Source of the DNA: a virus
Reading direction: 5' to 3' (one strand)
Virus record (IMG/VR): IMGVR_UViG_3300049893_001204
Coordinates: 13,679 to 77,678 of that record
Length of the DNA stretch: 64,000 nt
Position numbers and translations under genes: made by a program
Notes under the pieces: model-generated
What the model was told of the DNA's origin: nothing
The model's input: the letters and a program-made list of their open reading frames with translations, nothing else
The model's database searches: none
Part shown: piece by piece, positions 13,851-34,867 of the stretch
Layout: every line of letters starts with the position of its first letter
How positions within the stretch are numbered: position 1 is the first letter of the stretch

Positions 13851-13890
13851 GGTTACCTCTACCCCTGGGCAACCAGGGGTTTATGTAGCC
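13851..13890 (+). ncRNA. Motif C copy 1 (partial)
   Basis: GGTTAC..ACCCCTGG-GCAA-CCAGGGGT..GTAGCC; third segment missing. Confidence 0.5.
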
Positions 13891-14018
13891 CTCACCCGCG
13901 TTTATTCCCCCATTTCTGATACGAATTCGTATCGCGCGCGATGGGTTTGGGTGTAAGGATGGTCTTCTGGAAGAAGACAGTCTATGCATTAGGTGCCAGA
14001 TATTTTATCATAGGTACA

Positions 14019-14043
14019 TGTCAAGCTGGACGTTAAACGTAGC
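14019..14043 (+). ncRNA. Motif B copy 1 (divergent pseudoknot)
   Basis: TGTC aa GCTG GACG TTAAAC g TAGC. Confidence 0.5.
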
Positions 14044-14068
14044 AGACAACTTGGCGGTCGTTCACGAT

Positions 14069-14102
14069 CTTGGCAGCTGCAATTCCGCAGTGTAAGTCCA
14101 AG
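14069..14102 (+). ncRNA. Motif A copy 1
   Basis: CTTGG CAG CTGC aattcc GCAG TGTAAGT CCAAG. Confidence 0.65.
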
Positions 14103-14312
14103 CTCACCAGGAGAACATTGTGGACTACACCGTTAACATCATCGAGCTTGACAACAACTACTTCCTTCAGGAAGTTTTTGCTGTCACTGAGTTCCAGTAC
14201 GTGGAACAGGTGACTGCAGGGCCGTTTCAGGCTCGATGGCAAGCAGACGTGCAACGTTCTGTTGCTTACCCCGCTTATCGGGGATTAACAGATGAGCATT
14301 GCCGTCTGCAAC

Positions 14313-14392
14313 ACTGAGCTGTAGTACTGCACATCTGTGCAGGGCCAGGTGCAACTCCTGGCCTCAGTTATTGCCTCCAGCGGAGATAGGCA
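14313..14392 (+). ncRNA. Motif D copy 1
   Basis: ACTGAG..GCCAGG TGCAACT CCTGGC CTCAGT TATTGCC hairpin. Confidence 0.55.
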
Positions 14393-14414
14393 CCGCACAC
14401 ACACGGAGAAACCC

Positions 14415-14660
14415 GTGAGCAACCGCGACCAGCACCACCTTGCTCCGCTCAACGGAGACGGCAACCTCCCAACCAGGGAAGAAGCCGGCGAGTACGTCTT
14501 TAACCAGTGCAAGCACTGGATGGAAGAAGGTCACTCGCAGGTGTTAACCCGCGACCAAGGTCTTCAGATTGCCTGCTGGGCATTGAAGATCGCAGGAGCT
14601 CAAGAGCTTCTGACACACGTTATTGCAGAGCTTGTTGAGCTTCCCGATAACTACTGCTGA
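14415..14660 (+). CDS. Hypothetical early protein
   Basis: GTG start downstream of motif D and GGAGA; the ORF-track start at 14337 falls inside the motif. Confidence 0.55.
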   Translation: MSNRDQHHLAPLNGDGNLPTREEAGEYVFNQCKHWMEEGHSQVLTRDQGLQIACWALKIAGAQELLTHVIAELVELPDNYC

Positions 14661-14725
14661 TCCGTAACCAAGCGGGTGGGCAGGTGCAAACCCTGCCCCA
14701 GTTATTGCCACCCACTGAGGGTGGC
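14656..14725 (+). ncRNA. Motif D copy 2
   Basis: GCTG..GGGCAGG TGCAAAC CCTGCCC CAGT TATT GCCACCC actga GGGTGGC. Confidence 0.55.
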
Positions 14726-14949
14726 CTAGCTCAAGTCAATGTCCATGATCAAGAACTGTTTCGTTGTTGTCTTCAACGGCAACGTTGTTGGTATGCATGC
14801 AACTGAGGAGGCAGCTGCTCAGCAAGTATTACAGTTAGCTGAGGAGTGGCAACTTCATGCCGACTGCGGAGCCGAAGTGCCAAAACCAGTATTGGTTGCA
14901 ATGTCTTTCAATGAATGGATGCAGCACGAAAGTGTTGTTGTATTCTGAT

Positions 14950-15003
14950 TTCTGCATCAAGCCCTGAGTAATCAGGGTTTCTTGCAGGACTCAACATCCT
15001 GTA
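14950..15003 (+). ncRNA. Motif C copy 2
   Basis: TTCTGCA..CCCTGA GTAA TCAGGG..TGCAGGA ctcaaca TCCTGTA. Confidence 0.7.
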
Positions 15004-15414
15004 TCCCACACCTCAAGTCAGTTCATGACTGCACTCAACATTCGTAAGAACATTGGCGGTCTGCTCCATGCTACTGCATCAGCAGTGGAGCAGATCAAGG
15101 TACCTACCAAGCAGCAGCTTAATGAGAAGGTAGATGAGTACCGCATTCGTGCGGCTGCACTCATCATGCCTAATGATGCTGCATTTGTTATTCCTGGAGC
15201 TAAGAAGTGAAGAACGATTTTACTGGAGCAGTAGTTGCCATTGCTATTGGCAACGGACTAGGCTTTCTTCTGTCCATTGCTGGACAGAAGATGATCAACA
15301 AGCATCAGATAGCTGTATGTCCGAGCAAACCTAATCATTCACTTGTGATGGTTAGGAGTGTAGTTGGTGACAGCTACTACTGCATTGCTGATAAGTACTT
15401 AGACAAGCACTGAC

Positions 15415-15468
15415 GTTTGCACATTCCCTTGTGGTAACACAAGGGTTTCTGCAGACCTCACGTCTGCA
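15415..15468 (+). ncRNA. Motif C copy 3
   Basis: GTTTGCA..CCCTTGTG GTAA CACAAGGG..TGCAGAC ctcac GTCTGCA. Confidence 0.7.
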
Positions 15469-15748
15469 CCAATTCAACTCAACCCAACTAGGACTATGTC
15501 TCCTGCAAGTGTTGAATATCTGTTGACCCAAGATGCCAGGTTGCTGGCACGCAGGGATTCAACGCCTGCCCATCCTGCTATCGATGCAGAGATTGAGGAC
15601 TGCCGTCAGGCAGCACTTGATCTTTACTTCAAGTGGCAAGATGGGACAGCACAGTTCCAGGAACTTACACCCTTTGTGGTGATCTTGGAGCGCAAGGTTG
15701 AATTAAACCGTGCACTCATCAAGTGGTTGAAGAACCACGAGGATTGAT

Positions 15749-15813
15749 TCCTGTACTTAACCCTACCTATTCCATGTGATAGGTGGGTTTTCTACAGGAC
15801 TTAACATCCTGTA
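15749..15813 (+). ncRNA. Motif C copy 4
   Basis: TCCTGTA..hairpin..TACAGGA cttaaca TCCTGTA. Confidence 0.7.
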
Positions 15814-15839
15814 CACCACAGCACAACTCAGCACTAAAC

Positions 15840-16238
15840 ATGACTGAAGCCATCAAGAAGTATGCAGACTTCCAGCAAGTCGTCTTTCACGGACGCATTG
15901 CATACATGGAAGCTGTCAACTATGACGGCAAAGAATTTCTTGCTGTTACGTTGATGCACACGTTGTCTGAGACAACGGATCTACGGATTCGTTTTACGAA
16001 TGGCAACGGTCTTTTAACTGCCTACCGCAACGGTAATCTTGTGGTTGGTCAGGAGCTTACCATCAGTGGTAACATCAAGGGCATCCGTGCTTTCTACATG
16101 AAAGAGGATGAGCTTGTGCCACTGAAGCATCCTGAGCTACAGGTCCGTTGCATGGGTTATGTCTTTGGTTCCAAGCCAGAGCAGAAACCTGAGGCAGTAG
16201 CAACAGCTGTGCCAACGCTGGAAGAAATTCCATTCTGA
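15840..16238 (+). CDS. SSB-like OB-fold protein (early)
   Basis: VVFHGRI...VGQELTISGNI beta pattern and acidic-aromatic C-terminus EEIPF; start reassigned downstream of motif C. Confidence 0.6.
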   Translation: MTEAIKKYADFQQVVFHGRIAYMEAVNYDGKEFLAVTLMHTLSETTDLRIRFTNGNGLLTAYRNGNLVVGQELTISGNIKGIRAFYMKEDELVPLKHPELQVRCMGYVFGSKPEQKPEAVATAVPTLEEIPF

Positions 16239-16239
16239 T

Positions 16240-16302
16240 TTCTGCACTAAACCCTGCCCATCGTTAGATGGGTGGGTTTTCTGCAGGACTCAACATCCTG
16301 CA
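16240..16302 (+). ncRNA. Motif C copy 5
   Basis: TTCTGCA..hairpin..TGCAGGA ctcaaca TCCTGCA. Confidence 0.7.
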
Positions 16303-16773
16303 AACAGTCTACCCAACATCTCAACACATGCGATTATCAATTGATCAACATGATATCGACGAAGCTTGTGCTGAGTTCGGTATTTCTCAAAGCGACTATT
16401 ACATAACGTGCACATCCAGTGCAATATATATGCACTGGGTAGCAACACCAGAGCAAATCAAGAAGTATTTTGAAACTGGACATTGTTGTTTATGCATAGA
16501 TATAGGAGGTGAATGGATAATATCTGATGAGGTAGAAGATTACAGAATGCCTAATCGTTTAACTGCATGCCGTTACATTCTTGATGCTTGATATGAAACA
16601 CATAGTTTCACTAGGCAACAACCGCTATGTACACCTCGATTCTTATGGTGAGTCTTCTAAGACTCGAGCCGTAAGTCAGGTGATGGTTGTTGCCTTTGCA
16701 CTTGTCATTGCCTGCATTACAGTGCCTGCACTGGTAGGCATTGACATTACCAACATCAACTCAACACAGAACC

Positions 16774-17124
16774 ATGACAACATTAAGCGTTAACACTGCA
16801 CTAATTGAAGAACGTCTGCAGCAGCTTATTACTGCACTCATCAAACAGTTTGATGAATACAGCAGACGAAACTATGGACATCCAAGTGATACTCATTACT
16901 TGTCCTTTGAGATTGTCAAAGGTACCAAGTATTACAAGCTCATTATGAGGCAAGGTACTGGTACATCGGTGCATGCATTTATCAGTCGTCAGACTGGTGC
17001 CATGTACAAACCAGCTAGCTGGAAAGCACCTGCCAAGCACGTCCGGTACAATCTGCTGGATGACACATCATTTGCTGAGTGTCTACGCAGAGCTGACTGG
17101 GCTGGTGGGTATCTATACCTATGA
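16774..17124 (+). CDS. Conserved phage hypothetical protein
   Basis: KYYKL...SVHAFI...TGAMYKPASWKAPAKHVRYNL signature, recalled from cyanophage proteins. Confidence 0.65.
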   Translation: MTTLSVNTALIEERLQQLITALIKQFDEYSRRNYGHPSDTHYLSFEIVKGTKYYKLIMRQGTGTSVHAFISRQTGAMYKPASWKAPAKHVRYNLLDDTSFAECLRRADWAGGYLYL

Positions 17125-17173
17125 GCTTTATCAGTATTCCAGGTAACTAACGTTTACCAGGAATCCAACTAAC

Positions 17174-17213
17174 TGCTGGGCATCCATGGATATACATGGT
17201 GTAAGTCCCAGCA
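17174..17213 (+). ncRNA. Motif A copy 2
   Basis: TGCTGGG CAT CCATG gatata CATGG TGTAAGT CCCAGCA. Confidence 0.75.
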
Positions 17214-17229
17214 AATCACAACTCCTCCT

Positions 17230-17607
17230 ATGAAGGGACGCATTTCAATCCTCAAAGAAGATCGCATCTGGCAGCTGAGAACACAAGGTTATTGCTATGA
17301 CACAATCGCACAGATTGTCAATTGCAAACCTGGTTCAGTTCCAGCTGCACTTAAACGTACAAGACAACGTCCACCACTGGCACAAGATCCAGTAAAACGT
17401 GGACGTGTACGTGGCTTTCTATCTGATGATCAGATCTCTGACATCAGAAAACGCAAAGCACTAGGTGAAACATTACATTCCATTGCAGGTGACTATCACA
17501 TTGAGATATCATCTGTGTGGAATATTGTAACCTACAACTCTTACAAGGAACCATCAGGTGATTCTGGTTACCCATTCAAGTTTGGTAACCGCCTGATGCA
17601 TGGTTAA
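17230..17607 (+). CDS. Tandem HTH DNA-binding protein
   Basis: GYCYDTIAQIVNC and GETLHSIAGDYHIEISSVWNIV helix-turn-helix patterns. Confidence 0.6.
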   Translation: MKGRISILKEDRIWQLRTQGYCYDTIAQIVNCKPGSVPAALKRTRQRPPLAQDPVKRGRVRGFLSDDQISDIRKRKALGETLHSIAGDYHIEISSVWNIVTYNSYKEPSGDSGYPFKFGNRLMHG

Positions 17608-17608
17608 T

Positions 17609-17640
17609 ACCTGGGCATCCTTATGGTGTAAGTCCCAGGT
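17609..17640 (+). ncRNA. Motif A copy 3
   Basis: ACCTGGG CAT CC ttat GG TGTAAGT CCCAGGT. Confidence 0.75.
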
Positions 17641-17887
17641 TGTTTACAACTCACACAAGTTTACTGCAATGGACTCAAATCAATTTGAAAATGACATTCC
17701 TTCTGATGCATTAGATGCATTAGCTGATCTTGCCTATGAGCAAGAAGAAGCAATGAGGGAAGAACTTAACCAACCGGAGGTTTATGATGACCAAACATGA
17801 CTACACCTTTGAGCAGGCATGGGATGATGGCGACATCATCATCATTCTGCTCACAATCATTTCACTTATCATCACGGAAATTGGATC

Positions 17888-18235
17888 ATGTCTAGTGCCA
17901 AGCACTCAACAGCAACAGCACGTAAGTGGATTGCTGTCTACAACACATTCAAAGAGTGTGTTGGCAGAGAACCAACCACCATCTGTGTCTACGAATGCAG
18001 CACTGCATATGGAGGACCACAAGAAGGAGGTTGGTACTACGAAACCGGCTGGCCGCTCAAGACGATCTGCGTCTTCTCCAAAAAGCAAGCCATCCGTGAA
18101 GCCATCCGAGCGGAAGCGGAAACCGAAGAGCAACTTGGTAATCGCAAAGACTATCTCGGATGGAACGCCTGGTGTGTTAACTTCGACGTTGAGTACGCCA
18201 AGCCGTACCCAGAAGAACGTCCTTACTATTGCTGA
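17888..18235 (+). CDS. Conserved phage hypothetical protein
   Basis: AYGGPQEGGWYY motif and PYY C-terminus. Confidence 0.6.
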   Translation: MSSAKHSTATARKWIAVYNTFKECVGREPTTICVYECSTAYGGPQEGGWYYETGWPLKTICVFSKKQAIREAIRAEAETEEQLGNRKDYLGWNAWCVNFDVEYAKPYPEERPYYC

Positions 18236-18823
18236 TACCAATGCAAACAATTGGACAGAATCTCACAATCAACCAGCGTAATCTATATCTGTATTACTTG
18301 AATCATAAGAAGAAGAACAAGAATGCCGTATGCTTTGTTCCAAAGATGCCAATGCAATCAACCCGCATGCAAGACTACTTGCGTGCGATAGAAGCTTTAG
18401 AAGAGAAGAAGCTTATAGCTGTGGACAGAAGCTCAGATAATTACACTGGCTGGATCATTCGAGATCCAAAATAATTACCAGGTAATGCCAGATAGATACT
18501 GGCCTACCTGCTACACAACCCACTGCTATTTAACACAACACCATGGCATTATCCCTTGAGCAACAACTGATTGGTGATCTGATGGGATACCAGCCCATGA
18601 CACCAGAAGAAGCTGCAAAACCAGCGGACACATCACTGTGCAACCGTAAGGTTGAGATGCGTGATGGCTGGCCTCACATCATGTGGCGTAAGGAATGGAC
18701 TCCAGTTCCAACGATGGAAGAGTTGGAGGAATGGACGTTTGATTCCGTATGTTTGACACCAGATGAAGATGAGGTGGAACCAGATGATGTACACTCGTGG
18801 CTTAGTATTCTTGGTTTAATCTA

Positions 18824-19204
18824 ATGCCTTATAAAGATCCGGACAAAAAGCGTGAGTATGATCGCATACGTCGTCAAACTCACAAAGACCAGATCGCCGG
18901 TAATAAACGTAAATGGTCAAATGAAAATCGTGACAAGGTACGTTTAAGAAGTCAACGGCGACGAAAAGAGGATCCAGATTATTTTAAAAGATATCATGCA
19001 AATCAAGACCCTATTAAACGCAAAGCTAGGCACATGATTACAAATCGTGTGCGATCTGGCAAAATGCCAAGTTGTTCAGTATTTACTTGTGCAGATTGCA
19101 ACAAGAAAGCTGAACATTACCATCATGAATCGTATGAACAATGGTGGGCTGTTGTTGCTTTGTGTCAAGAGTGTCATTACCGTAGACACCAAAAACCAAT
19201 TTGA
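18824..19204 (+). CDS. HNH-like/Zn-binding protein
   Basis: Basic N-terminus, CADC...HYHH...LCQECH. Confidence 0.6.
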   Translation: MPYKDPDKKREYDRIRRQTHKDQIAGNKRKWSNENRDKVRLRSQRRRKEDPDYFKRYHANQDPIKRKARHMITNRVRSGKMPSCSVFTCADCNKKAEHYHHESYEQWWAVVALCQECHYRRHQKPI

Positions 19205-19271
19205 TATTAGCAACAACTACGTGAGCCAGATCATCCGCATAGCTGGCTGCGTATACTGGGCATGATCTAAC

Positions 19272-19322
19272 ACTTAGGCATTCACATTATCACACTAGTG
19301 TTATGTGATGTAAGTCCTAAGT
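19272..19322 (+). ncRNA. Motif A copy 4
   Basis: ACTTAGG CAT TCACAT..ATGTGA TGTAAGT CCTAAGT. Confidence 0.7.
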
Positions 19323-19710
19323 ACACAGCTAACACAACACAACAACACCATGGGACGTAGCAAGAAATCTGATGGGCCCTCACCAGATTATCCCCAAGGT
19401 CTACACAATGTCACATTTAAAGACATTAGCGAAGATGATTGGTGGTTAATCATTCATCTGTTTGAAGGACGCATTGAATACTTTCAACGGAGGTTGAATG
19501 ACATCATGCAGACTGGAGACCCTGACTTGATGGATAACACAACTCAGTGGTACAGAGAATCAATTGCACGTCTGACCAAGAGACTAACTGAGTTTGAAGA
19601 TCAGATTAGTCCTGTTTACTTCAGACGTAAACGTGCAGAGAAAGCTGCGCGATGCAAGCAGTACAACCTACCTATTGACAAGAACGATCTAACAACTAGA
19701 ACTTGATAAG

Positions 19711-19740
19711 CCTGGGCATCCGTAAGGTGTAAGTCCCAGG
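19711..19740 (+). ncRNA. Motif A copy 5
   Basis: CCTGGG CAT CC gtaa GG TGTAAGT CCCAGG. Confidence 0.75.
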
Positions 19741-20976
19741 GTTTACAATCTATTCACAACATAACAACACCATGCCGCAAGATCAACTGCATTTTGAACC
19801 AGAGGTATTCCGTTCTTATAACGGTAATGAGGTTGTGCTTCAGATGAATGAAGCCAAACGCATTGACCTAATCATCAAAGAACTGCAGGCTATCTATGCA
19901 AGAGAGGAGAAACGTAATCACATGTACCTGCATTTTCCATATGAAGCACCAGAGCTTTTGTTGGAAGCCATTGAGCTGCTTGAGAAAGCAACTGAGTGGG
20001 GTGAACCATCAGATGGTTATCTGACAGGTGAACCACCACTGACTGCAGATGAAATGCACACAGCAGCATGGAAGCAGCACCAGGAGTTGCACTCATAAGT
20101 TGAGTAGTATTACTCACAGCATGAGTAGAGGGTGTACCCCCAGACCCCCAGAGGGTACCAGGGGGGCACCCTTATTTCTATAAGGTAAACCTATGTATCT
20201 AACCATTACACATTAGATACAACCCTTGACTACCCTGATAGACTACCCTCGTTCACTCATCTAACTTCACTTCACTTATGTCTGATCAATTACGTATTCC
20301 TGATTCAATAGATAACCAACGACTTGCTGCTATGCGTTTAGTTGCTCACCTTAAAGAGCAAGCAGATAAGTCAGGTGTTGGATTCATTGGGGGCTTTATT
20401 GCCCCCAATGGAGAAAAGTTTGTCATGTCCAATATGGATGATGAGGACATGCAGATGTTACTTCCTGATGAACTTCAGTGACAACCATGACAACTACACA
20501 CAAACTTATTGAACAAGTCATCAGCTCTTTCGAATTTGAAAAAGTGTTAATCACTATGCAAGCATTGGATTGGAAATGGAGAGATCCAAATACTAAAGAG
20601 ATGCATGTACCTACTATTGCTCGCATGAAAGCAATGGCAACAAACCTGTTGTTCTCATCGATAGAAAACACATGCTGTGGCTCTGGTGGTTTTGAAGCTA
20701 CATACACAGAACCAACAGAGCATGAGCCAGAGTCATTTGAACTCAAGTTTATTGTTACCGAAATGAACACAAATTCCAATGCCTAAGAAATCATCAATCA
20801 ATTTCGACAAGACAATCCTGGGATTTAACATTACAGAACATGGTGTTAAGTCTTATACCAAGTCGATCAAGCTTGGTCCATTCCAGGTAACATTGAATGC
20901 ACGTGACTCAGGTGTACGTGCGTCAGTAGCATTGCCTGGTACAGGATTGTCTAAACGAAACATTAAATTATTCTAA

Positions 20977-21012
20977 AGATCTGGGCATCCTTACGGTGTA
21001 AGTCCCAGGTCT
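20977..21012 (+). ncRNA. Motif A copy 6
   Basis: AGATCTGGG CAT CC ttac GG TGTAAGT CCCAGGTCT. Confidence 0.75.
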
Positions 21013-21705
21013 GTTCACCTACCAATTCAATTCCATGGATCAAATCACTTTGTTTGACAGAGTTAATCTTGCTAACTGCGCAATGCGCAGGGCAGAGGAG
21101 CATCTCTCAGATGCTGAACGCTTTACTGCGGAGTTTCAGACGGTACGTGCTTGGACTAAATACCGTTGCAACATCTACAAGTACGACAATCGTATTGTTG
21201 CTTACACGGAGTCAAACTGATGGCATGCACTGTCCTTGCAATTGAAGAGACTACGATCAATGGATCTGATGTCACAGTTACAGCAATGGTTGAAGACATG
21301 CGTCTTCTATACCGTGCAACATATACAGATCCTGAGGAATGGGCTCCTGCATTATGCAGAGCTTCTTTCCAGCTGGCTGATGACGAACAGATTCCTACTG
21401 ATGAAGATGGCTTCTGCCATTTCTTGTATCAGTTGGATCTTGAATGGCAACTGGTTGACACATCTGATTGGAGTTTAGACTAATGCTTGGCTTTTCAATA
21501 GAATTCAAACGCTGGTACATTGTACTGCGTGGCCCCAGGGGTAGGGTTTACCTTGCCACTGGGTTTGCTAAGCAGTTGCCATTTTATGTATCACCAACAC
21601 AAGCTGCAGCATTCGATGCTGCAGTAGATGATACACATTGTGCAATACTTGCAGATGAATGGCGTGAAGACGATAATGAAGATGAAGAAATAGAGAACTG
21701 ATCAC

Positions 21706-21736
21706 ACGTCCTAGGTCATGACGTTAAACTGACCTA
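21706..21736 (+). ncRNA. Motif B copy 2
   Basis: ACGTC c TAGGTCA t GACGT TAAAC TGACCTA. Confidence 0.75.
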
Positions 21737-21762
21737 CACTACAAACTCAATCCACACCAACC

Positions 21763-23511: not shown

Positions 23512-23766
23512 AGCCACAGCAAGGCCATCGTATGCTTGGCATAGGTGGCCTTTTCTTTCATGCCTGACTACACTGATGAACAGCTGCTTGCCATGGCAAT
23601 GGCAAACATTGGTGAATACATTCATGATCACTCACCACACTATGTACTGATTGAAGATCCTCGTAATGAGGATGACTATGATACATGGGATTATGGTACT
23701 GAGCCATTACCTCATGATCACACTTGGCATTCAACTGCAATCACAGTTGATGTAAGTCCAAGTGAT

Positions 23767-24360: not shown

Positions 24361-24363
24361 ACA

Positions 24364-24391
24364 CTGGGCATCCTTATGGTGTAAGTCCCAG
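24364..24391 (+). ncRNA. Motif A copy 7
   Basis: CTGGG CAT CC ttat GG TGTAAGT CCCAG. Confidence 0.75.
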
Positions 24392-24757
24392 CCACCAACC
24401 CACACAGCAACTTCAACATCATGTCAATTTTTGCTTGCTTTAAGTACATCATTCCTGAGTTCCATGCCTTCAGTGATGAAGACAAGCGCTACAACGTAGG
24501 TGCGACATGGACTGCACAAGATGGACTTAAGGATTACCACAACATTGAGTTGCGGTACGTCCACAACTCAGAACGTCTTGCGCTCCAAGGTGATCCACAA
24601 CCTGATGGCAGCTGGCGTTATGTAGAACCCAATGGCAATGTCCATACCATCTCAGCTGATCGAGCTAAACACTTTATGGAGCAGACACAGTTGCATGCCA
24701 CCATCATGGTTGAGATGCTAGACAAGCTTAAGGAATCTGGTACAGGGCAGCCGCCCA

Positions 24758-24836: not shown

Positions 24837-24943
24837 GATGGACACATTGCTAATCATTTTTATTATCTGTGGTATTTCATTTATTGTTGTTTCTGTAGTT
24901 TATGACTGACCCAAACGAAGAAACTCATCAAGGAGTTAGACCA

Positions 24944-26459: not shown

Positions 26460-27155
26460 ATGATCATGAATGTCAAGTTGATCTGGGTAACCCCCAACGC
26501 AGAGGAGCTAATTACTTATATGGCACGTGTCAGTGCCCCAAAAAATCAGGAGAATATGGAGACTGCTCCTAAGTTGTTGCGTTATTTAATTCAACATAAG
26601 CATTGGTCTCCTTATGAGATGGCTAACATGTGTGTTGAAATTAACACAACCCGTGCAATATCTGCACAGATTATTAGACATCGCTCATTTAGTTTCCAGG
26701 AGTTTAGTGCTCGCTATGCAGATGTCAGTGAACTAGGTTCTGCTGTCATCCCACACTTGCGTAGACAAGATCATAAGAACAGACAAAATAGTATTGATGA
26801 TTTAGATACAGAGATGGTTGGTAGTTATTACCGACGTATCAGTCAACTTTTTGAGGATGCTGAACATCTCTATCGTGAGATGATAAGCACTGGTGTTGCT
26901 AAAGAGTGCGCCAGGAACATTCTGCCAATGGCAGCTCAGACTAGAATCTATATGCAAGGATCCTTGCGGTCATGGATCCATTACTTACAGCTACGTTGTG
27001 ACAACGGAACTCAAGCAGAACACCGACAAATTGCAGAAGAAATCAAACGAATCTTCTGTCAACAATTCCCAGTCACTGGAGAAGTTGCCTTCTCAGGAGA
27101 AGACAACACAACGCAACCACCTGAGGAACAACGCATTAGTCGTTTGTTTTTCTAA
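26460..27155 (+). CDS. thyX: FAD-dependent thymidylate synthase
   Basis: HWSPYE, QIIRHRSFSFQEFSARY signature, KECARNILP. Confidence 0.95.
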   Translation: MIMNVKLIWVTPNAEELITYMARVSAPKNQENMETAPKLLRYLIQHKHWSPYEMANMCVEINTTRAISAQIIRHRSFSFQEFSARYADVSELGSAVIPHLRRQDHKNRQNSIDDLDTEMVGSYYRRISQLFEDAEHLYREMISTGVAKECARNILPMAAQTRIYMQGSLRSWIHYLQLRCDNGTQAEHRQIAEEIKRIFCQQFPVTGEVAFSGEDNTTQPPEEQRISRLFF

Positions 27156-27280
27156 GAGGGTGTGACCTCACGGTGATCAAGCCGCAAGGTCATTCGTTTA
27201 CTAGCCAGGGGAAGCAGCAGAAACCCTGACTCCCTCGGGACTGACGCTGCTCTTCTGCGTCCCACAACAGTCTACTTGAC

Positions 27281-27307
27281 ACGTCCTAAGCATGACGTTA
27301 AACTGCT
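27281..27307 (+). ncRNA. Motif B copy 3
   Basis: ACGTC cta AGCA t GACGT TAAAC TGCT. Confidence 0.7.
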
Positions 27308-27330
27308 CCACACCAACTCACTACAACATC

Positions 27331-28119
27331 ATGAAACTTCTTAAGTTTTCTACTGGGAACGGCAAGCTCAAGAATCGTTTGATCTTTTCGTTGCCAGCGG
27401 GTTATGCATGCCCACATGCTGGTGTATGCAAGACCTTTGCAGATCGTGTCACAGGTAACATTACTGACTTACCTCAGCACACTGGTACTACAGCGGATGA
27501 GTTCCGCTGCTTTGCTGCAATGGCAGAGACTAGGCCAACCGTACGTGATGCACGTTGGCATAACTGGGATCTGCTGCGTAATACCATCCATCTCAATGGC
27601 AATCAGTCAATGCTGATGCGTGATCTGATTGACATGTCGTTGTTGATGGAACCAGAGAAGGAACTTGTACGCATCCATGAGAGTGGTGACTTCTGGATTG
27701 AAACCTACATGCGTGCATGGGCAATGGTTGCAGCACAGCGACCTAAGCAGAAGTTCTATGCCTATACCAAGTCTCTTGGCATGTGGTTGAACTTACGTGA
27801 TCAGCTGCCATCTAACTTCTATCTCACTGCATCTTACGGTGGTACGCTTGACTATCTCTTGCCAAAGTATCCAGATGTGTTCAAGCGTATTGCTTATGTG
27901 GTATACACAGAAGATGAAGCTAAAGAGCGTGGTCTAGAGATTGACCATGACGACAGCCATTGCTTTGGCAACAAGCCGTTTGCACTCCTTGTGCATGGCA
28001 GCCAACGCGCTGGATCAGACGCCATGAAAGCTTTGTCTCAACGTAAGAAAGACAAGGGATTCGTTGGGTACGGTAAAACATTCCAAAAAGAATCCGTACC
28101 TATTAACGTCTTTGCTTAG
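27331..28119 (+). CDS. Gp88-like protein
   Basis: GNGKL...FSLPAGYACP...C...CFA, RIHESGDF, FYAYTKS. Confidence 0.7.
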   Translation: MKLLKFSTGNGKLKNRLIFSLPAGYACPHAGVCKTFADRVTGNITDLPQHTGTTADEFRCFAAMAETRPTVRDARWHNWDLLRNTIHLNGNQSMLMRDLIDMSLLMEPEKELVRIHESGDFWIETYMRAWAMVAAQRPKQKFYAYTKSLGMWLNLRDQLPSNFYLTASYGGTLDYLLPKYPDVFKRIAYVVYTEDEAKERGLEIDHDDSHCFGNKPFALLVHGSQRAGSDAMKALSQRKKDKGFVGYGKTFQKESVPINVFA

Positions 28120-28288
28120 ACCCGCTACTATCAGTTAGTTATACCTAACTGATTAATGGCTTATCTGCTGGCATGTTGGAAGTCTGGTACACCATATGGT
28201 GTCCGGGCTTCCACTGATTCTTTTGAGTTGATTCCGTTAGACTCGGAAACAGCATTAGGAAAAGTCTTTAGTCATCCGTATCGCTCAG

Positions 28289-30184
28289 GTGCACAAAAGA
28301 TTTTGTCCTGGATCCAGCAGAATGATCATGTCCTCAATCGTGAAGAACTCTCAATTCAAGATTGCGCCAGGTTCCAGCGATGAACGTTGGCTCATCTTTG
28401 ATTTGGAATCGGATGGGTTGTATGACGTTGTATCCGTTATCCATTGCATTGTCATCTATGACATTGGAGCCAACCAAACTTTTACTTATGGGCCTGATTG
28501 CATTGCTATTGCTCTTGATCATTTGGCAACCGCTGATGTTTTGATAGGGCACAACATCATCTTTTATGATCTGCCTGTTCTGCAAAAGTTGCATTCATTT
28601 GTCTGCAAAAGTCGGATTGTAGACACACTTATTTGCACTCGATTGATCTGGCCTAAGGAGGTACTCTATGACCTTGACACAGAACAATATCCGCAGGTTC
28701 CAGAAAAGAACCGTGGATCCGCATCACTTAAGGCTTGGGGATGGCGCTTGGCCAATCACAAGATCGACTTCAAAGACTTCAGTGAATACAGCCAAGAGAT
28801 GTTGGACTACTGTGTCCAGGATGTTGTTGTCACCCTTAGCCTTTGGCAATTCATTGTCAAACAAAACTATCCGCAAGCAGCTTACAAACTTGAACACGAC
28901 TTTGCTATTGCCATTAACAAACAAATTAGAGCAGGCATTCCTTTTGACGTTGATGCATCTCTTGATCTTGTGGATGGTCTTAGAACAAAACAAAAAGAAC
29001 TCGAAGTTCATTTAAAAAAAATCTTTCCACCTATCAAACATGAGACTACCTTTATCCCCAAGGTTAACAACTCCACGAAGGGTTACGTTAAAGGCCAAGC
29101 TTTTACTAAAGTACATTGGGAGGAATTTAATCCTGGCTCTCGTGAGCAGATTGTACAAAGGCTACAAGCAAAGTACGGATGGACCCCTGAAACAACTACG
29201 GAGAAAGGTAATCCAATTCTTAATGACGATATACTTGCGGCACTTCCATATCCCGAGGCAATTCAGTTATCCGAATACATGTTGGTTAAGAAGCGTCTTG
29301 GCCAAATAGCAGATGGTCGTAACGCATGGCTCAAGCTTGTTAACAATGACACTGGTCGTATGCATGGTGATCTAGTAACCAATGGTTGCATCACAGGTCG
29401 TTGTGCTCACCGCAACCCAAACATGGGTCAAGTACCAGCAAGCTATTCACCTTATGGTCATGAGTGCCGTAGTTTGTTCCATGCCCCGCAAGGTTGGGAT
29501 CTTATTGGTATTGATGCCAAAGCATTGGAGCTGCGTTGTTTAGCTGGTTATCTTGCCCTCTGGGATGATGGTGAGTATGCATCAATGGTTATTAATCCAG
29601 AAGTAGATATCCATAGCTATAACCAAGAGCAATTTGGTGTAGCAACCAGGGACATAAGCAAACGTCTTTTATATGGGCTTCTATACGGGTGTGGTGCAAT
29701 TAAAGCAGGTACTATCATCAATGCAGAAGAGAAAGATCCTGAGGTACTTGCAACTTTAGGGCGTAATGCTATCGATGGTTTTATGCGTGGTGTACCAGCA
29801 CTGAAAAAGCTTAAACAAAAGATTGAAGAGACTATTGGAACTCGTGGTTATCTTATTGGTCTTGATGGTCGCACTCTACATTGTCGTTCCGCTTTTAAAG
29901 GATTGAATGTTTTGTTGCAATCCAGTGGTGCAATCATCATGAAACAAGTTGTAATTAATATGCACAACAACATTGAACAAAACCTGGCTTTACCACATGG
30001 TCAGGAGTGGGAACAAATGCTTATGATCCATGACGAAGTCCAGTTGGCATGCAAGCCTGAGCACACAGAACACATCCGTGAACAAGCATTGCAAGCCTTC
30101 CCCCAAGCAGGTGCGTTCTTTGGATTTAAATGTACAATTGAAGGCGACTCCCGCGTTGGCAAGACGTGGGCTGATACACATTAA
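28289..30184 (+). CDS. polA: Family A DNA polymerase (T7-like) with 3'-5' exonuclease
   Basis: ExoI FDLESDG, ExoIII YCVQDV, motif A DAKALELR, motif B KRLLYGLLYG, motif C IHDE; true start probably nearer 28322. Confidence 0.95.
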   Translation: MHKRFCPGSSRMIMSSIVKNSQFKIAPGSSDERWLIFDLESDGLYDVVSVIHCIVIYDIGANQTFTYGPDCIAIALDHLATADVLIGHNIIFYDLPVLQKLHSFVCKSRIVDTLICTRLIWPKEVLYDLDTEQYPQVPEKNRGSASLKAWGWRLANHKIDFKDFSEYSQEMLDYCVQDVVVTLSLWQFIVKQNYPQAAYKLEHDFAIAINKQIRAGIPFDVDASLDLVDGLRTKQKELEVHLKKIFPPIKHETTFIPKVNNSTKGYVKGQAFTKVHWEEFNPGSREQIVQRLQAKYGWTPETTTEKGNPILNDDILAALPYPEAIQLSEYMLVKKRLGQIADGRNAWLKLVNNDTGRMHGDLVTNGCITGRCAHRNPNMGQVPASYSPYGHECRSLFHAPQGWDLIGIDAKALELRCLAGYLALWDDGEYASMVINPEVDIHSYNQEQFGVATRDISKRLLYGLLYGCGAIKAGTIINAEEKDPEVLATLGRNAIDGFMRGVPALKKLKQKIEETIGTRGYLIGLDGRTLHCRSAFKGLNVLLQSSGAIIMKQVVINMHNNIEQNLALPHGQEWEQMLMIHDEVQLACKPEHTEHIREQALQAFPQAGAFFGFKCTIEGDSRVGKTWADTH

Positions 30185-30347
30185 CCATGTACTTACTTGT
30201 AAAATTACTTAACGAATTACTTACTCTTGGTGTTTATTCAACATTGATTAAATGTGCATTTGACTTTACTTGGTATCAAGGATTTGCTCTTGGTTATTTG
30301 TTTTGGATTTTACGTGATGCCTGTAAAAATCCCAACAAATGATTATT

Positions 30348-30374
30348 CGTCCCAGGTATGACGTTAAACTGCCT
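30348..30374 (+). ncRNA. Motif B copy 4
   Basis: CGTC cc AGGTA t GACG TTAAAC TGCCT. Confidence 0.7.
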
Positions 30375-30395
30375 TAACACCTTGCATCTGTACTC

Positions 30396-31211
30396 ATGAA
30401 CTTTGCTTCTGTCTGCGCTCAAACTAACGAAACTCCACGGGAAGTATTTATTAGTGCAACAGCTACAGCTATCCGCTGTTCGGTAACATTGCCTCCTGTT
30501 GGCAAGAAAGCTCCTACTGTACTTGAACTCAATGTATATGGAAAAAACGCAGAGCGTTTTGTCCAAGCACCCAAAGGATCCCTCATCTACATTCACGGCG
30601 CCAAGCTACGTCACGATCTTGACACCAAAACGTTTTTGTTACATGGAGGAATTATTGCTCCGGTTACGGAACAATTCCCGATCTTTAATACAATCATCTT
30701 GAGTGGTCGTTGTATTAAAGACATTGACCACGATGACGCACGTGCATTTCGTACAACACCAGATGGTTTGATGATTTGCAATCAAACACTATCTGTTAGC
30801 ACTGGTCGCAATCAAGCTGATCTCTTCAACTTCTTTGCGATGAACAATGCACAGGACAAACTTAACAATGCCGAATTGTTAGTTAACTTCACACGCAAGG
30901 GAACTGGTCTAACCATTAACGGTCGCCTTGTAACAGATACATGGATTGACCGTGAAACAAAAGAAAAGAAATCTCAGACCAAGATCCAGCTGGTTAATAT
31001 GACCCTGGCTCCCAAGGGATCTGTTGAACCGCAGCCAATTACACCGCAAACCACCGTTGCCTCTACTGAGAATGTTGCCACGCTTTGGGGTGGCCGCACT
31101 GCTGACGAAACTCCTGATCCCTGGAACAAAGCCTCAGGTGGTGGTCTGCCTGATCTCCCTGGACACTATGGCCCTGCTCCAACTGAAATCGATGAAGAGG
31201 TTCCGTTCTGA
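30396..31211 (+). CDS. ssb: Single-stranded DNA-binding protein with tandem OB folds
   Basis: NTIILSGR...RKGTGLTINGRLVTDTWIDRETKEKKSQTKI; C-terminal DEEVPF. Confidence 0.75.
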   Translation: MNFASVCAQTNETPREVFISATATAIRCSVTLPPVGKKAPTVLELNVYGKNAERFVQAPKGSLIYIHGAKLRHDLDTKTFLLHGGIIAPVTEQFPIFNTIILSGRCIKDIDHDDARAFRTTPDGLMICNQTLSVSTGRNQADLFNFFAMNNAQDKLNNAELLVNFTRKGTGLTINGRLVTDTWIDRETKEKKSQTKIQLVNMTLAPKGSVEPQPITPQTTVASTENVATLWGGRTADETPDPWNKASGGGLPDLPGHYGPAPTEIDEEVPF

Positions 31212-31536
31212 TGTCTGATCACACTCCTGTCAAGCCACTGAAAAGTGAGTTTTGTTTTCTACATGAAGACTCAGATGGTACTGAAACCATTGTTAAGTTT
31301 GACCAGGTTTTTACCGACAAGATCATTGAGAACTTCATTCAGTTCTTAAGGGGTTGCGGTCACCATGACATTTGTATTTACACTGCATTGCAATTTTTTG
31401 CAGAAGAATACTTTCAATCCATGGAGTCTATGGATCTTGTAGAGATCCATGAAGATAACAAAGAAATGTTAAAAGACCTTAGAAAGAAAAAGAAGAAGGG
31501 AGTTAAGCAAGAAGCTGATGACTTAAACTGATGGCC

Positions 31537-31564
31537 CGTCCTGGGATGACGTTAAACTCATCCA
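31537..31564 (+). ncRNA. Motif B copy 5
   Basis: CGTC c TGGGA t GACG TTAAAC TCATCCA (stem 2 imperfect). Confidence 0.6.
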
Positions 31565-31585
31565 CTAACCCACTCGGAACTGACC

Positions 31586-32689
31586 ATGACTTCAACTCCG
31601 ATTGACATCTTGAGTGATTCCTGGATGGATGAAATCCAACCTGAAACAACTTCTGCACCACTCCCTGCTTCTACCAACAAAATGACCATGAAGAAAACCT
31701 CTTCCCTTGCCAAGCGTGACATTGCTTCTTTCCAAATTTTCCAATCTAAGGAATTTGTTTCTGGGTACCAGAACCTCGTCACAATTCAACCTCTTAACAA
31801 GTCCAAGACACGAGGTTGGTTCGTGCGGAAGTCAGACCTGGACACTTGCGGATGGAGTGCCACTGAAAGTGACTTTGCTACAGGTTCAGTTATCTGGAAC
31901 TACAAGCAAACTTTTGGCATGGCTCCCAACACTTCAGTGGAAGAAGGACTCAATTTTACTGAGCCTCGTATTCAAATCCTTCTACGTTCTCCCCTCATGG
32001 TTGAGGAAACCACAGGGATGAGGCAAACGATTGGTACGTTTGATAACCCTGAGGTTAAGGAATTGTTTGAAGCCGATAAGGTTGCATCTGATCTTGCCGG
32101 CAGCAAAGGTGAGCTGTACAAGCGCAAGTACAGTGTGCGGACCAAATACCTGATCTACCTGCTGACCAAAGACAACAAGCGTGCCCATAATATTCCTATG
32201 GTGCTGACGCTGAAAGGTCTTAATGGTACAGATGTATCTGATAAGGTACGTATCTATGAGCGTGAGATGTCTAAGTGTCTGAGCAAAGCTCTGGATACTG
32301 AGATTCCTCTGAGCTTCAATGAGAAGTTCTATGCCACTACAGTGTTCTCTCCTGTGTTGGCTAATGAGATGCGTGGTGCTAACAACGTAGAGATCTGCGC
32401 TGTTGAATCATTTGACATTCCTGATTACAGCACACAAGAAGATGCGATTGAATCTTTGAATCGTTTGTCGATTCCAGATGAAGATCGTGAATCAACTTGG
32501 AAGTACCAGGAACTGTTCTTTGATTACATCAACATCCATGCCAAGCAGGATGCACAGAAACTGGGTGGTGCCTATGGTATGAAAGATGGTGTAGAAGTAT
32601 TGCCTGCTTCTCGTACCACAGATGCCATTGAGGTTAAGGCATTGCCTTCTCGTAACCCCATCACTGGTGAGGATTCTGATCTGAGCTAA
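31586..32689 (+). CDS. DUF5895-like protein, possible DNA recombination/annealing role
   Basis: GWFV...GW, PRIQILLRSPL, YLIYLL..DNK..H.IPMVLTLKG resemble a cyanobacterial family (from recall). Confidence 0.5.
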   Translation: MTSTPIDILSDSWMDEIQPETTSAPLPASTNKMTMKKTSSLAKRDIASFQIFQSKEFVSGYQNLVTIQPLNKSKTRGWFVRKSDLDTCGWSATESDFATGSVIWNYKQTFGMAPNTSVEEGLNFTEPRIQILLRSPLMVEETTGMRQTIGTFDNPEVKELFEADKVASDLAGSKGELYKRKYSVRTKYLIYLLTKDNKRAHNIPMVLTLKGLNGTDVSDKVRIYEREMSKCLSKALDTEIPLSFNEKFYATTVFSPVLANEMRGANNVEICAVESFDIPDYSTQEDAIESLNRLSIPDEDRESTWKYQELFFDYINIHAKQDAQKLGGAYGMKDGVEVLPASRTTDAIEVKALPSRNPITGEDSDLS

Positions 32690-32954
32690 CACTAACAGAA
32701 GGATTAGCTAGGTCATTCGGATTGATAATCACTTGATTAAAGATCCGAATGTCCTTTACTAAACCTTTAATAATTCCTTGACGTTGAGTGGCAATCCTCG
32801 CCAAGAGGGTTGCCATCTCTTTTAGTTCACTAACGGAATTACATTCAGCAATGGAGCGTTTGATCTTTTCTTCCCAGAACTTATCATCAATTGATGGTTC
32901 AATTTCAAACGCATGCAATGGAGTGTACTCAAGTTCTTGTGTAGATTCTTCCAT
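32661..32954 (-). CDS. Hypothetical protein
   Basis: 97-aa ORF, lone minus-strand gene with upstream TAGAAT. Confidence 0.5.
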   Translation of the reverse strand: MEESTQELEYTPLHAFEIEPSIDDKFWEEKIKRSIAECNSVSELKEMATLLARIATQRQGIIKGLVKDIRIFNQVIINPNDLANPSVSVSSDQNPHQ

Positions 32955-33246
32955 TGTTTATGTAATTGTTAGTGACATTCTACTCAAAAACAATCAGAGA
33001 TTCAAAATGAAACCTGAAGAAAAAGCTGCATTACAGACAGGTGCCATTGCTGCTGGGCTAGGAAGCCTAGTAGCTCTGGTCGTAAGCAGCCCCATTACCT
33101 GGGGTGTGCTGGCCTACGGCACCTATCGAATCAGTCGTCAGGCGTACCAGCGGACCAAGTACCGTGGTAAGCTGAAGCCTATCCCTGAGGAAGACACCTG
33201 GGGGATCTGATTCCAACTCAACTCAAACCACAACACACTATTAGCC

Positions 33247-34188
33247 ATGACAACTGCTCAACTTACAGAACTCAATGAAGGTCAGAAACTTATCTACACA
33301 CGCACGAATATTGGCCGTGCGTTCCATGGGTTTGATGACACCGAAATTGCTGGCATTTATTTGCGAGATGATGATTGTTGCGTGGTGCGCCGCGATGGTA
33401 GCCAGCAGACTTACAACAGGGAACTGATAAGAAAAGCTTATATATGCCACAAGGGTAGGCTTAAGGATTTCTTTTCATATTTAGGTCCTAACTATAGGGG
33501 TCCTAGCATATGGCGTAACAACGCCTATGTTCTTTTCAAAGGATGGAACTATGTCCATGCACTCGGACACACAACACCCAACGCAAAGTTACAAAACCAC
33601 TGGGCAGACAAATTTATACACCTATCAGATCAACACAAACTCACAACCCTCCTTCAATCTGACCAAACAGACCTGGGGCATCTGGTTGCGCCGGACGGGT
33701 TGCGGTCTACAGATCGGCCCATTGATCTGGACTCTGAGTTGGTGGAAGACGAGAGTACCCTTCCGACATGTGAACCTTGGTGTTCATGCGGGTCCTTTCA
33801 GCGTCAGCTCCACAATCTTCCTCTGCTCAGACAAGAAGCAGAAGGAATCATGCCCTGGTGCATCCACCTGAGTTGGTTTATTAAGTACAGGCAACTGCTA
33901 TGCAAGCGCACAGAGGTACGTAATGCAGCACCATCTGGTACACCAGATAAATGCGTGGCTTGGTTTTATGCTCCACCGGTAGATGCAACCAGTGACGGTA
34001 AGTTTGTATTGCTGCATACCAAGCATGGGTCACAGGCACCGCTAACACACTGGCGTACCTACAAGAAAGATGAAGTCTTTACGCAAGCTGATGCATGGGC
34101 TTTGTTTGACAGTATGCTAGATGCTGGTTATGTGCCATACCCTGGCACTTCTTTGCCACAACTTAAGACTGCACTCAAGAAACAATGA
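33247..34188 (+). CDS. SWIM zinc-finger-containing protein
   Basis: WCSCGSF...WCIHL (CxC...CxH). Confidence 0.6.
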   Translation: MTTAQLTELNEGQKLIYTRTNIGRAFHGFDDTEIAGIYLRDDDCCVVRRDGSQQTYNRELIRKAYICHKGRLKDFFSYLGPNYRGPSIWRNNAYVLFKGWNYVHALGHTTPNAKLQNHWADKFIHLSDQHKLTTLLQSDQTDLGHLVAPDGLRSTDRPIDLDSELVEDESTLPTCEPWCSCGSFQRQLHNLPLLRQEAEGIMPWCIHLSWFIKYRQLLCKRTEVRNAAPSGTPDKCVAWFYAPPVDATSDGKFVLLHTKHGSQAPLTHWRTYKKDEVFTQADAWALFDSMLDAGYVPYPGTSLPQLKTALKKQ

Positions 34189-34838
34189 CACCAACCCAAC
34201 GTTATGATCTGGACATTCCAGAAGACACCCATTGGGCACTTGTTAAGTTAGCTGCAGAACTTAAGATGCATCATGAAGACTATGCACAAAACATTCTGAT
34301 TGGTCATGTCGAACACGAATTGGATCGACAAGCTGCAGCTAACAACGATTGAAGAACCTGATGGGTCTTTGACAATTCAGATTGACTGGGATCCAGAAGA
34401 TCCGGAGTTAGCTCTTTGGACTTCATGGGGTGAGGAAAAACAAAAACAACTTTTCCTCGATGCTTTAACCAAAACTCTTGACAAGGAAATTGACAATGAC
34501 TATTGATCAGTATGGCTTGAATGATCCAGAGTATACCAAGCTGTTCCTTAAGAATGCAGATCAACTAATTGATCTGTACTATAGGTTTAGCAATAAGCTA
34601 ACGGCTGGTTACCAAATGGGTGTGCCAGAGGATGTTAAGCGTCAGCTCTTTGATGATGTTGTTTACAGAACCAATGACTGCGCTCGTGAGAAACATAAAG
34701 AAGAACATCCTGAAAGCATTGAACTATATGTAAGTAATACAGAGTTGAAGAAAGAGATTGATTCTCTTAAAACAATTCTTCTTAATTTAGTTGAAGTATT
34801 GATTGCAGCCGAAGAAAATAAACCGATGGAATAATAGT

Positions 34839-34867
34839 GCGTCCTGGTCATGACGTTAAACTGACCA
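34839..34867 (+). ncRNA. Motif B copy 6
   Basis: GCGTC c TGGTCA t GACGT TAAAC TGACCA. Confidence 0.75.

Follow-up and report, generated by a model that had tools for sequence, protein, structure and literature searches.

The window analyzed here, 64,000 nucleotides (nt) that correspond to bases 13679-77678 of the 77,678-nt IMG/VR virus record IMGVR_UViG_3300049893_001204, carries 21 intergenic elements of four families, A (eight copies), B (six), C (five), and D (two), all on the plus strand. Family B is, as judged from covariation, an H-type pseudoknot with support for both helices, and it looks like a natural, extended version of the Watson-Crick-type coremin, a form of an exonuclease-resistant RNA (xrRNA) motif of plant viruses. 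We propose that the elements are RNA modules that would protect and insulate the 5′ end of one cistron each, a proposal that we regard as evenly poised between right and wrong.

A preliminary description of the region had listed 20 such elements. Its families, their places, and their strand were borne out; the total became 21, family A having eight copies rather than seven. The four families were also recovered by a repeat finder. Covariance models yielded the eight A copies (model R3) with expectation (E) values of 8e-13 to 8e-7, the next-best match having E = 0.43, the six B copies (R2) with values of 8.5e-11 to 3e-4, and the five C copies (R1) with values of 2e-16 to 2e-7, while the two D copies came from alignment A4 and its consensus fold. 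None of the A to D elements had a match in Rfam 15, either at the gathering threshold or at E ≤ 5 over the region, and a 66-nt stretch around one B copy had none at E ≤ 10.

The source is a freshwater S-EIV1-like cyanophage of 77.7 kb, whose family A DNA polymerase is 67% identical to its counterpart in Synechococcus phage S-EIVl, a cultured cyanophage from a High Arctic lake. A megablast search against phage records gave no match. As relatives, we used 72 environmental contigs taken around the polymerase gene, 1.34 Mb in total. All four families recur in dozens of related contigs, and the compensatory changes first noted among the copies of the window were confirmed for every family. Variants of all four families are also present in the S-EIVl genome, in whose GenBank record no repeats or elements are annotated. 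Orientation was strict. In the whole 77.7-kb genome, the A core occurred eight times forward and the B pattern five times forward, neither of them in reverse, and reversed control patterns gave 0 matches. In the relatives, forward versus reverse counts were 98/0 for the 10-nt A core, 156/0 for the 10-nt B core, and 206/0 for a structural descriptor of B.

The consensus of family B reads CGUCC-Y-(5 nt)-U-GACG-UUAAAC-(5 nt). The two 5-nt strings form a helix, S2, in which 91.8% of alignment cells are paired and five of five base pairs (bp) covary, a result that 0 of 500 shuffles reached; its pairs comprise 505 Watson-Crick, 87 G·U, and 7 A·C. The other helix, S1 (CGUC/GACG), varies at its first pair, which is CG in 138 copies, UA in 11, AU in 5, GC in 3, and UG in 2, with 2 mismatches; of the 21 cases with a 3′ base other than G, 19 have a compensating 5′ base. 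Covariation in S1 and S2 together thus points to an H-type pseudoknot. Among 129 aligned copies, GUC...GAC and UUAAAC are invariant and the next U is kept in at least 90%. The spacer also occurs as UAAAAC (16 copies) or CUAAAC (15 copies). The loop of 7-9 nt has C as its first nucleotide, U or C as its second, and A-U/A/C as its last two. The subtype with a shorter loop and second helix, B′, was also seen at L029, L053, L058, L070, and L080 among the loci compared.

A full-text literature search with the invariant B 10-mer led to papers on coremin, an Xrn1-resistant RNA of plant viruses with the motif GUCCGAAGACGUUAAACUAC (PMC10520033, PMC6546385). In coremin, the 4-bp hairpin hp1 carries a YGAD loop and is followed by a conserved spacer of about 10 nt, whose AAA and CU are indispensable, and by a second hairpin (hp2) of any sequence; Xrn1 halts one nucleotide before hp1 (PMC10520033, PMC6546385). 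Loops follow the rule YGAD (4 nt) or YGNNAD (6 nt), function also being reported for some of 7 and 8 nt, and natural spacer variants include U14A and 5′-C (PMC10520033, PMC6546385). A pseudoknot between loop and spacer was suspected by the coremin authors (PMC10520033, PMC6546385, PMC10321173), and a "Watson-Crick-type coremin" (xrRNA_WCC), with a 3-bp loop-spacer helix and one natural example, was selected later (PMC10321173).

In family B, the S1 stem is that of hp1 (xGUC/GACy), with the loop-closing C-G, and the spacer starts with UUAAACU, including the essential AAA. Compared with the coremin spacer, G-UUAAACUAC, B matches save for the last two positions (AC), which are replaced by the S2 strand, and the B variants UAAAAC and CUAAAC are the same as the natural variants U14A and 5′-C. 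The loop-to-spacer helix of xrRNA_WCC is found in B as a strongly covarying helix of 5 bp. Like coremin, B is intergenic and also occurs in tandem. The preliminary description had recognized no single described system with these folds; this was wrong for B. The carriers differ, B being found in double-stranded DNA phages and prophages and coremin in eukaryotic RNA viruses; the enzyme met by B would be RNase J rather than Xrn1; and B reaches up to nine copies per locus, each before a gene.

In vitro, purified bacterial RNase J1 is halted by the classes of flaviviral and dianthovirus xrRNA tested, which are seen as generic mechanical blocks (PMC5760640, 10.1101/262683); the enzyme is described as one that such RNAs "never naturally encounter" (PMC5760640). 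In the papers on coremin cited here, the class was assayed with Xrn1 only, and bacteria, phages, and RNase J go unmentioned (PMC10520033, PMC6546385, PMC10321173). A search combining xrRNA and bacteriophage returned nothing relevant, a 2021 review lists RNA viruses only, and a coremin-like RNA in phages appears to be new within the literature searched. Among the functions that had been suggested for the elements, namely cutting a long transcript into per-gene messenger RNAs (mRNAs), protecting their 5′ ends, gating translation, and serving as recombination points, the B match makes 5′-end protection the best supported.

The elements span about 20 to 60 nt before start codons, where promoters lie, and their families are zoned, so that they could instead act on DNA, as phage-specific promoters or protein-binding sites with families as temporal promoter classes. 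B does hold TAAACT, a −10-like hexamer, exactly 17 nt past the position before CGTCC, the copy at 27276 has TTGACA at that position, and in some phages B directly follows terminators. However, the 14 nt upstream of B contained the stop codon only and no −35 box in 123 copies; copy 27276 alone fits a sigma-70 −35/−10 pair with a 16- to 18-nt spacer; and sigma-70-like sites by scan were fewer (30) than in shuffled sequence (37). No phage RNA polymerase was found in a Pfam and PHROGs search. The 87 G·U against 7 A·C pairs of S2 indicate that the fold is read on the sense strand, whereas an N4-type hairpin promoter would require the template strand. Neither this ratio nor stem covariation would make sense for a duplex site, to which the conserved halves of A, separated by 7 to 66 nt, are likewise unsuited. 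The lack of a −35 signal, the few sigma-70 sites, the phage polymerase not found, and the G·U excess together make the promoter reading unlikely, and we consider action on DNA of any kind highly improbable. The earlier attribution of an RNA rather than a DNA function thus agrees with the covariation, the G·U excess, the variable insertions in A, and the strict co-orientation. The elements would act as a folded sense strand, most simply RNA, and would be RNA in vivo.

Other candidates were rejected. An integron attC-like or REP-like (repetitive extragenic palindromic) single-stranded DNA site for B did not agree with the missing inverse core, the missing integrase, and the link to start codons. 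Self-cleaving ribozymes (hammerhead, pistol, hepatitis delta virus-like, twister, and hatchet) and preQ1-type riboswitches were discarded for B, C, and D, as the Rfam models were unmatched and the junctions were without the required cores. CUGAUGA-like strings before some copies are stop codons plus variable next bases.

Placement was equally constrained. The order proposed earlier, stop codon, element, G-poor leader (~20-30 nt), and ATG, holds at the gene boundaries, the leaders 3′ of the elements having 0-8% G and no Shine-Dalgarno motif. The tandem C-B-A-D start of the block at 13.8-14.4 kb (C 13830, B′ 14013, A 14066, and D 14313) and the zoning of the families were also as described. Of 123 distinct B copies, 93 end 20-23 nt before the ATG and none more than 32 nt before it; exactly 5 nt separate the end of the upstream stop codon from CGUCC in 63 of 120. 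For A, the distance to the ATG is 17-32 nt and the commonest copies begin 3-4 nt past the stop. From established ribosome geometry, we infer that 5 nt is about the smallest gap letting a ribosome reach the stop without unwinding the knot, and ~20 nt the smallest leaving space for an initiating ribosome. In long intergenic gaps, the element adjoins the downstream start, however distant the upstream stop. A transfer RNA (tRNA) gene follows about 15% of A copies at 3-5 nt: in the window, the copy at 23720 ends 4 nt before tRNA-Leu(UAA) (23766/7-23842), and the same arrangement was seen in ~15 relatives. As the element tracks the downstream start, coding or not, the modules belong to the downstream gene.

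Two longest-open reading frame (ORF) starts fall inside elements, an ATG within B at 27292 (ORF 27292-28119) and a GTG within C at 15783 (ORF 15783-16238). The true starts are probably the ATGs past the leaders, at ~27334 and 15840.

Family A is built on another fold. Its outer stem of 5-6 bp (CUGGG/CCCAG in 34 copies, CUAGG/CCUAG in 16, CUUGG/CCAAG in 13, and rarer compensated forms) leads to an invariant, asymmetric internal loop (CAU in the 5′ strand, UGUAAGU in the 3′ strand) and then to an inner hairpin, 7 to 66 nt long, with a loop of any kind. When the 10-nt core was the sole search criterion, 94 distinct copies were found, of which 89 have a 5-bp outer stem, versus 2.5 expected after shuffling, and both inner closing pairs covary (CG 21/UA 17). 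In the tandem start, the A copy stands after B′ and before a GTG start at 14120. The CUGGG form was present in more than 119 IMG/VR stretches among the matches listed, in several contexts. A literature search with the A and D sequences gave nothing relevant.

Some surroundings of A recur elsewhere. In high-GC phage contigs (L210, L217, L223, L253, L281, L290, and others), TGATG precedes A and GGC-rich short-period repeats follow it. A terminator-like T run stands after A in L239 and L254, and a palindromic hairpin with a GGAG ribosome-binding site in L218, L220, L228, L230, L241, and L264.

A and B meet at one gene. Upstream of the ssb orthologue, B was found in 53 related loci, A in 5, and an A-core variant in 3 more; the loci with A belong to the more distant clade, in which B is absent altogether. 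Since A replaces B before the same orthologue, the families are interchangeable, as had been supposed, and two folds serve one position. By the same token, A would be functionally equivalent to B. This swap, the same families flanking different genes across relatives, and the scatter of A and B over unrelated phages could also point to selfish or recombinogenic cassettes that spread and shuffle genes, as PeSL elements do, with little function of their own. Such cassettes are the explanation to which we give the least credence: in the absence of selection on function, one would expect neither compensatory changes that keep structure over hundreds of copies nor an exact position relative to stop and start codons.

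A further possibility is that each family is a translational operator, bound by a phage or host protein that switches sets of genes post-transcriptionally and so creates temporal regulons; SSB might nucleate on the B pseudoknot and spread over the unstructured leader, or a ribosomal component might bind. In shape, the layout resembles the leader of T4 gene 32, where an unstructured region comes after a pseudoknot. Every family keeps its unpaired nucleotides without variation, the distance between B and the ATG varies very little, the transcript shows zones of the different families with B before ssb and other replication genes, and whole clades without B use A, as if a factor acting in trans had been lost. 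Against this, A also precedes tRNA genes, which are untranslated, and the invariant nucleotides of B are those needed for protein-free coremin function. Nor does a dedicated phage protein seem likely, given that A and B occur across many unrelated phages and many bacterial phyla, at distances from start codons that range over 10-200 nt. We thus deem the operator explanation improbable.

Families C and D differ from A and B in taking in the upstream stop codon. For C, RNAalifold prefers a long hairpin whose 5′ strand starts within the UGA stop (its GA, in the copy at 14929) and which consists of P1 (9 pairs), a 4x4 internal loop, and P2 (at least 4 pairs plus a variable extension), with 99.4% of cells paired. 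The P1 3′ strand can pair instead with the next 7 nt, giving hairpin 2, in 14 of 14 copies tested (−7.5 to −13.3 kcal/mol; z scores −3.8 to −6.4). As hairpin 2 is found in all copies tested, three segments covary together and two mutually exclusive helices are kept. D folds into a three-way junction with the stop codon (CUGA) in its closing stem, followed by a further hairpin; 96.4% of cells are paired and nine pairs covary, six of them in the 7-bp arm with the loop UGCAAAC, which may be T-loop-like. The GNRA loops noticed earlier were found as GUAA in A 19709, C 14929, and C 15394.

These shapes speak for endonucleolytic punctuation, in which host RNases would cut the RNA into per-gene mRNAs, RNase III acting on C, RNase P or RNase Z on D as a tRNA mimic, and another enzyme on A and B. 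The 9-bp lower stem, 4x4 internal loop, and upper stem of C have the general shape of phage RNase III sites, and the 7-bp arm of D, with its 7-nt loop, can stack on the 4-bp closing stem. Moreover, an A copy is immediately followed by a real tRNA within the transcript, and in L139 (9490-9590), a viral contig of 143 kb, B comes immediately after a tRNA gene whose 3′ end reads ...ACCA. However, RNase III needs longer helices than those of A (5-6 plus 2-8 bp) or B (4 plus 5 bp). Neither ARAGORN nor the Rfam tRNA model classed D as a tRNA, three true tRNAs only being reported, and cutting C or D at the 5′ edge would take away the upstream stop codon. The B match to an exonuclease-blocking motif also points elsewhere. 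Taken as a general account, punctuation seems unlikely to us; it is compatible with protection, the two not being mutually exclusive.

The strict B pattern was present in more than 115 IMG/VR stretches among the matches listed, with S2 kept in 93 of 99, and many of these matches lie outside the S-EIV1-like phages. There, B stands behind terminators, or a few nucleotides past −10-like boxes, before capsid and other operons, often at the very 5′ end of a transcription unit; in Firmicutes-type contigs, it stands a few nucleotides past the likely transcription start. In bacterial genomes, at least four of five S2 pairs were kept in 53 of 86 among the matches listed. The carriers include Firmicutes, Saccharibacteria, Chloroflexi, Deltaproteobacteria, Cyanobacteria, and other groups, and there B appears to lie in prophage-like DNA of mostly RNase J-bearing bacteria. 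Among 26 genomes with a paired B, 22 had an RNase J (TIGR00649) score exceeding the family cut-off, versus 13 of 26 with unpaired chance matches (p = 0.017), an association that is suggestive only. The enzyme was also present in a Synechococcus elongatus control genome and in a B-carrying Synechococcus metagenome-assembled genome (MAG).

Several further observations concern B in these genomes. In L146 and in L171 (a GVMAG-labelled contig), two B copies are ~80-110 nt apart. Two bacterial MAGs (Bradymonadales and Calditrichia) have CRISPR arrays, with 42 and 11 repeats of ~37 nt, at L320:1-4000 and L373:4778-5586, and one spacer in each is the family B motif. On the opposite strand the repeats end in ATTGAAAC or ATTGAGAC, an orientation from which the CRISPR RNA would be antisense to B RNA in both arrays. 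Finally, at seven bacterial loci of different phyla (L323, L324, L326, L331, L340, L355, and L389), a hairpin with a CAYUGYR-type loop lies ~12-40 nt before a B copy with a CCGGGCA loop; it had no Rfam match and no flanking repeats.

Under the mechanism that we propose, the modules would be transcribed within long early/middle mRNAs and act in cis, each at the 5′ edge of one cistron or one tRNA. Placed ~3-5 nt past the upstream stop, as near as a terminating ribosome allows, and followed by a structure-free, G-poor leader of ~20-30 nt without a Shine-Dalgarno sequence, a module would be a mechanical barrier shielding the downstream message from 5′-to-3′ or 5′-end-dependent decay, for which the cyanobacterial enzymes are RNase J and RNase E. 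A second effect would be to isolate the leader from sequence and ribosomes that lie upstream. In B, the barrier would be a coremin-type pseudoknot, S1 being crossed by the A-rich strand UUAAAC and S2 joining the loop to the downstream strand; in A, two helices around the fixed CAU/UGUAAGU loop would do the same through another fold. C and D overlap the stop codon, so that a terminating ribosome would have to open them. When C is melted, the freed strand may form hairpin 2, and the barrier would persist in both states; in D, the structure would be a three-way junction that includes a hairpin resembling a T arm. This scheme presumes that the elements resist exonucleases in bacteria and that A, C, and D are equivalent.

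Protective and insulating modules fit the facts better than promoters, dedicated protein operators, or RNase III sites, the last because only C has the right shape. A number of points nevertheless weigh against such modules. The B loop of 7-9 nt fits neither YGAD nor YGNNAD, its second nucleotide being U or C and not G, and B has no obligatory hp2, an unstructured, G-poor leader following the spacer in S-EIV1-like copies; in some copies of other phages, a hairpin is present after the spacer. Beet necrotic yellow vein virus coremin needs both the YGAD/YGNNAD loop and the second hairpin for Xrn1 resistance (PMC10520033, PMC6546385). A, C, and D are unlike any known xrRNA. The stop codon held inside C and D leaves room for another role, and they may be processing sites or translation-coupled switches; their roles are the least certain of the four families. 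In L093 and L315, intrinsic terminators directly precede B, and transcription through it is thus assumed. The RNase J enrichment was not significant under a looser criterion (p = 0.12), 4 of the 26 paired-B genomes had no RNase J above the cut-off, one of them a complete chromosome, and the IMG/VR and bacterial-genome counts are samples among the matches listed.

A bolder version of the proposal would make B a true coremin-class xrRNA directed against bacterial RNase J, and A, C, and D further undescribed classes. The families would then form the first natural xrRNA toolkit in viruses of prokaryotes, used gene by gene so that each cistron of a polycistronic message is stable on its own, and spread widely through phages and prophages of RNase J-bearing bacteria, and the plant coremin fold would be an H-type pseudoknot. 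We hold this version tentatively, with somewhat more doubt than belief.

Table 1. Elements of families A to D and the promoter candidate, in window coordinates
Feature	Position	Strand	Description	Support
C	13830..13912	+	Divergent; begins at stop codon of ORF 13547-13849	R1 E = 1.7e-7
B′	14013..14048	+	Subtype with 6-nt loop and 3-bp second helix	R2 E = 3e-4
A	14066..14105	+	Outer stem CUUGG/CCAAG, internal loop CAG/UGUAAGU, inner hairpin	R3 E = 2.5e-8
D	14313..14401	+	Three-way junction and third hairpin, then GGAG and GTG start	Alignment A4, consensus fold
D	14648..14736	+	Upstream stop codon (CUGA) in closing stem	Alignment A4, consensus fold
C	14929..15011	+	Long hairpin P1/P2 and alternative hairpin 2	R1 E = 3e-15
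C	15394..15478	+		R1 E = 6e-15
C	15728..15821	+		R1 E = 5e-14
C	16219..16310	+		R1 E = 2e-16
A	17173..17214	+	18 nt before ATG 17230	R3 E = 7e-10
A	17608..17641	+	Short inner hairpin	R3 E = 8e-13
A	19271..19323	+	Outer stem UUAGG/CCUAA, long inner hairpin	R3 E = 8e-7
A	19709..19742	+	GUAA (GNRA) inner loop	R3 E = 1.4e-11
A	20978..21011	+		R3 E = 3e-11
B	21703..21739	+	Pseudoknot before 582-amino-acid PcfJ-like gene	R2 E = 4e-7; Pfam
A	23720..23765	+	CUUGG/CCAAG type	R3 E = 5e-9
A	24361..24394	+		R3 E = 1.6e-12
B	27278..27313	+	Pseudoknot before GP88-family gene; probable true start ATG ~22 nt past element	R2 E = 1.3e-10
B	30344..30379	+	Pseudoknot before ssb	R2 E = 8.5e-11; kept there in 53 related loci
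B	31533..31567	+	Pseudoknot before DUF5895 gene	R2 E = 2.6e-5
B	34836..34871	+	Pseudoknot	R2 E = 3.6e-10
Sigma-70-like promoter (putative)	13324..13352	+	TTGAAA, 17 nt, TATAAA	By eye; absent from promoter scan list

The elements lie in a plus-strand block at ~13.0-37 kb with ~45 mostly small genes, which include thyX, polA, ssb, the GP88-family gene, the DUF5895 gene, and the PcfJ-like gene. The promoter candidate of Table 1 is the likely start of a long early transcript; a terminator scan placed an intrinsic terminator upstream of it, at 13299-13318, and others near 20.16 and 24.8 kb. With few terminators and a single promoter picked by eye, the block is probably read as a few long transcripts. 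Further intergenic hairpins outside the four families stand before G-poor leaders at 18476-18542, 17137-17165, and 13500-13546; one of these precedes the first early gene and is kept in S-EIVl. Additional element families probably exist. Divergent from the block, a minus-strand ORF of 976 amino acids (10047-12977) was unmatched in Pfam and PHROGs. The later part of the genome holds a match to the Rfam abiF RNA motif (RF03085) at 43321-43357 on the minus strand (52.2 bits, threshold 37), near the tRNA genes Thr and Pro (42498-42647).

Taken together, one family has a counterpart in eukaryotic RNA viruses and three, the well-supported structured RNAs A, C, and D, have no known relatives, a finding more general than the preliminary description supposed. 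xrRNAs are known from eukaryotic RNA viruses, and a coremin-like phage pseudoknot would, if confirmed, extend the principle to bacteria. It would explain how phages with long transcripts and leaders without Shine-Dalgarno sequences keep individual messages alive, and it would offer small, portable, protein-free insulators for synthetic operons. The B copies also bring natural covariation data for coremin, the structure of which is still unsolved; if the relationship is true, hundreds of covarying phage copies would settle the plant-virus coremin fold as an H-type pseudoknot.

Three known systems bear comparison. T4-type PeSL cassettes, which combine an early promoter and a stem-loop, are likewise repeated intergenic modules of an early region; the analogy, drawn earlier, turned out to be unsupported, since no promoter signal is associated with the elements here. 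In T7, the host polymerase makes a long early transcript whose cistrons are separated by RNase III sites. This second analogy holds in part: structured elements also separate cistrons here, and C, with its two stems and internal loop amounting to about two turns of double-stranded RNA, fits in shape. In contrast, A, B, and D are too small or of the wrong shape, four unrelated folds are used rather than one, and C has an alternative hairpin and takes in the stop codon. Gram-positive bacteria and their phages have 5′ mRNA stabilizers, in which 5′-proximal structures or stalled ribosomes block RNase J1; they offer a parallel in position. As with these stabilizers, the elements lie at the 5′ edge of the message, in hosts with a 5′-to-3′ exoribonuclease; whereas the known stabilizers are individual cases, here conserved families of motifs are reused gene by gene.

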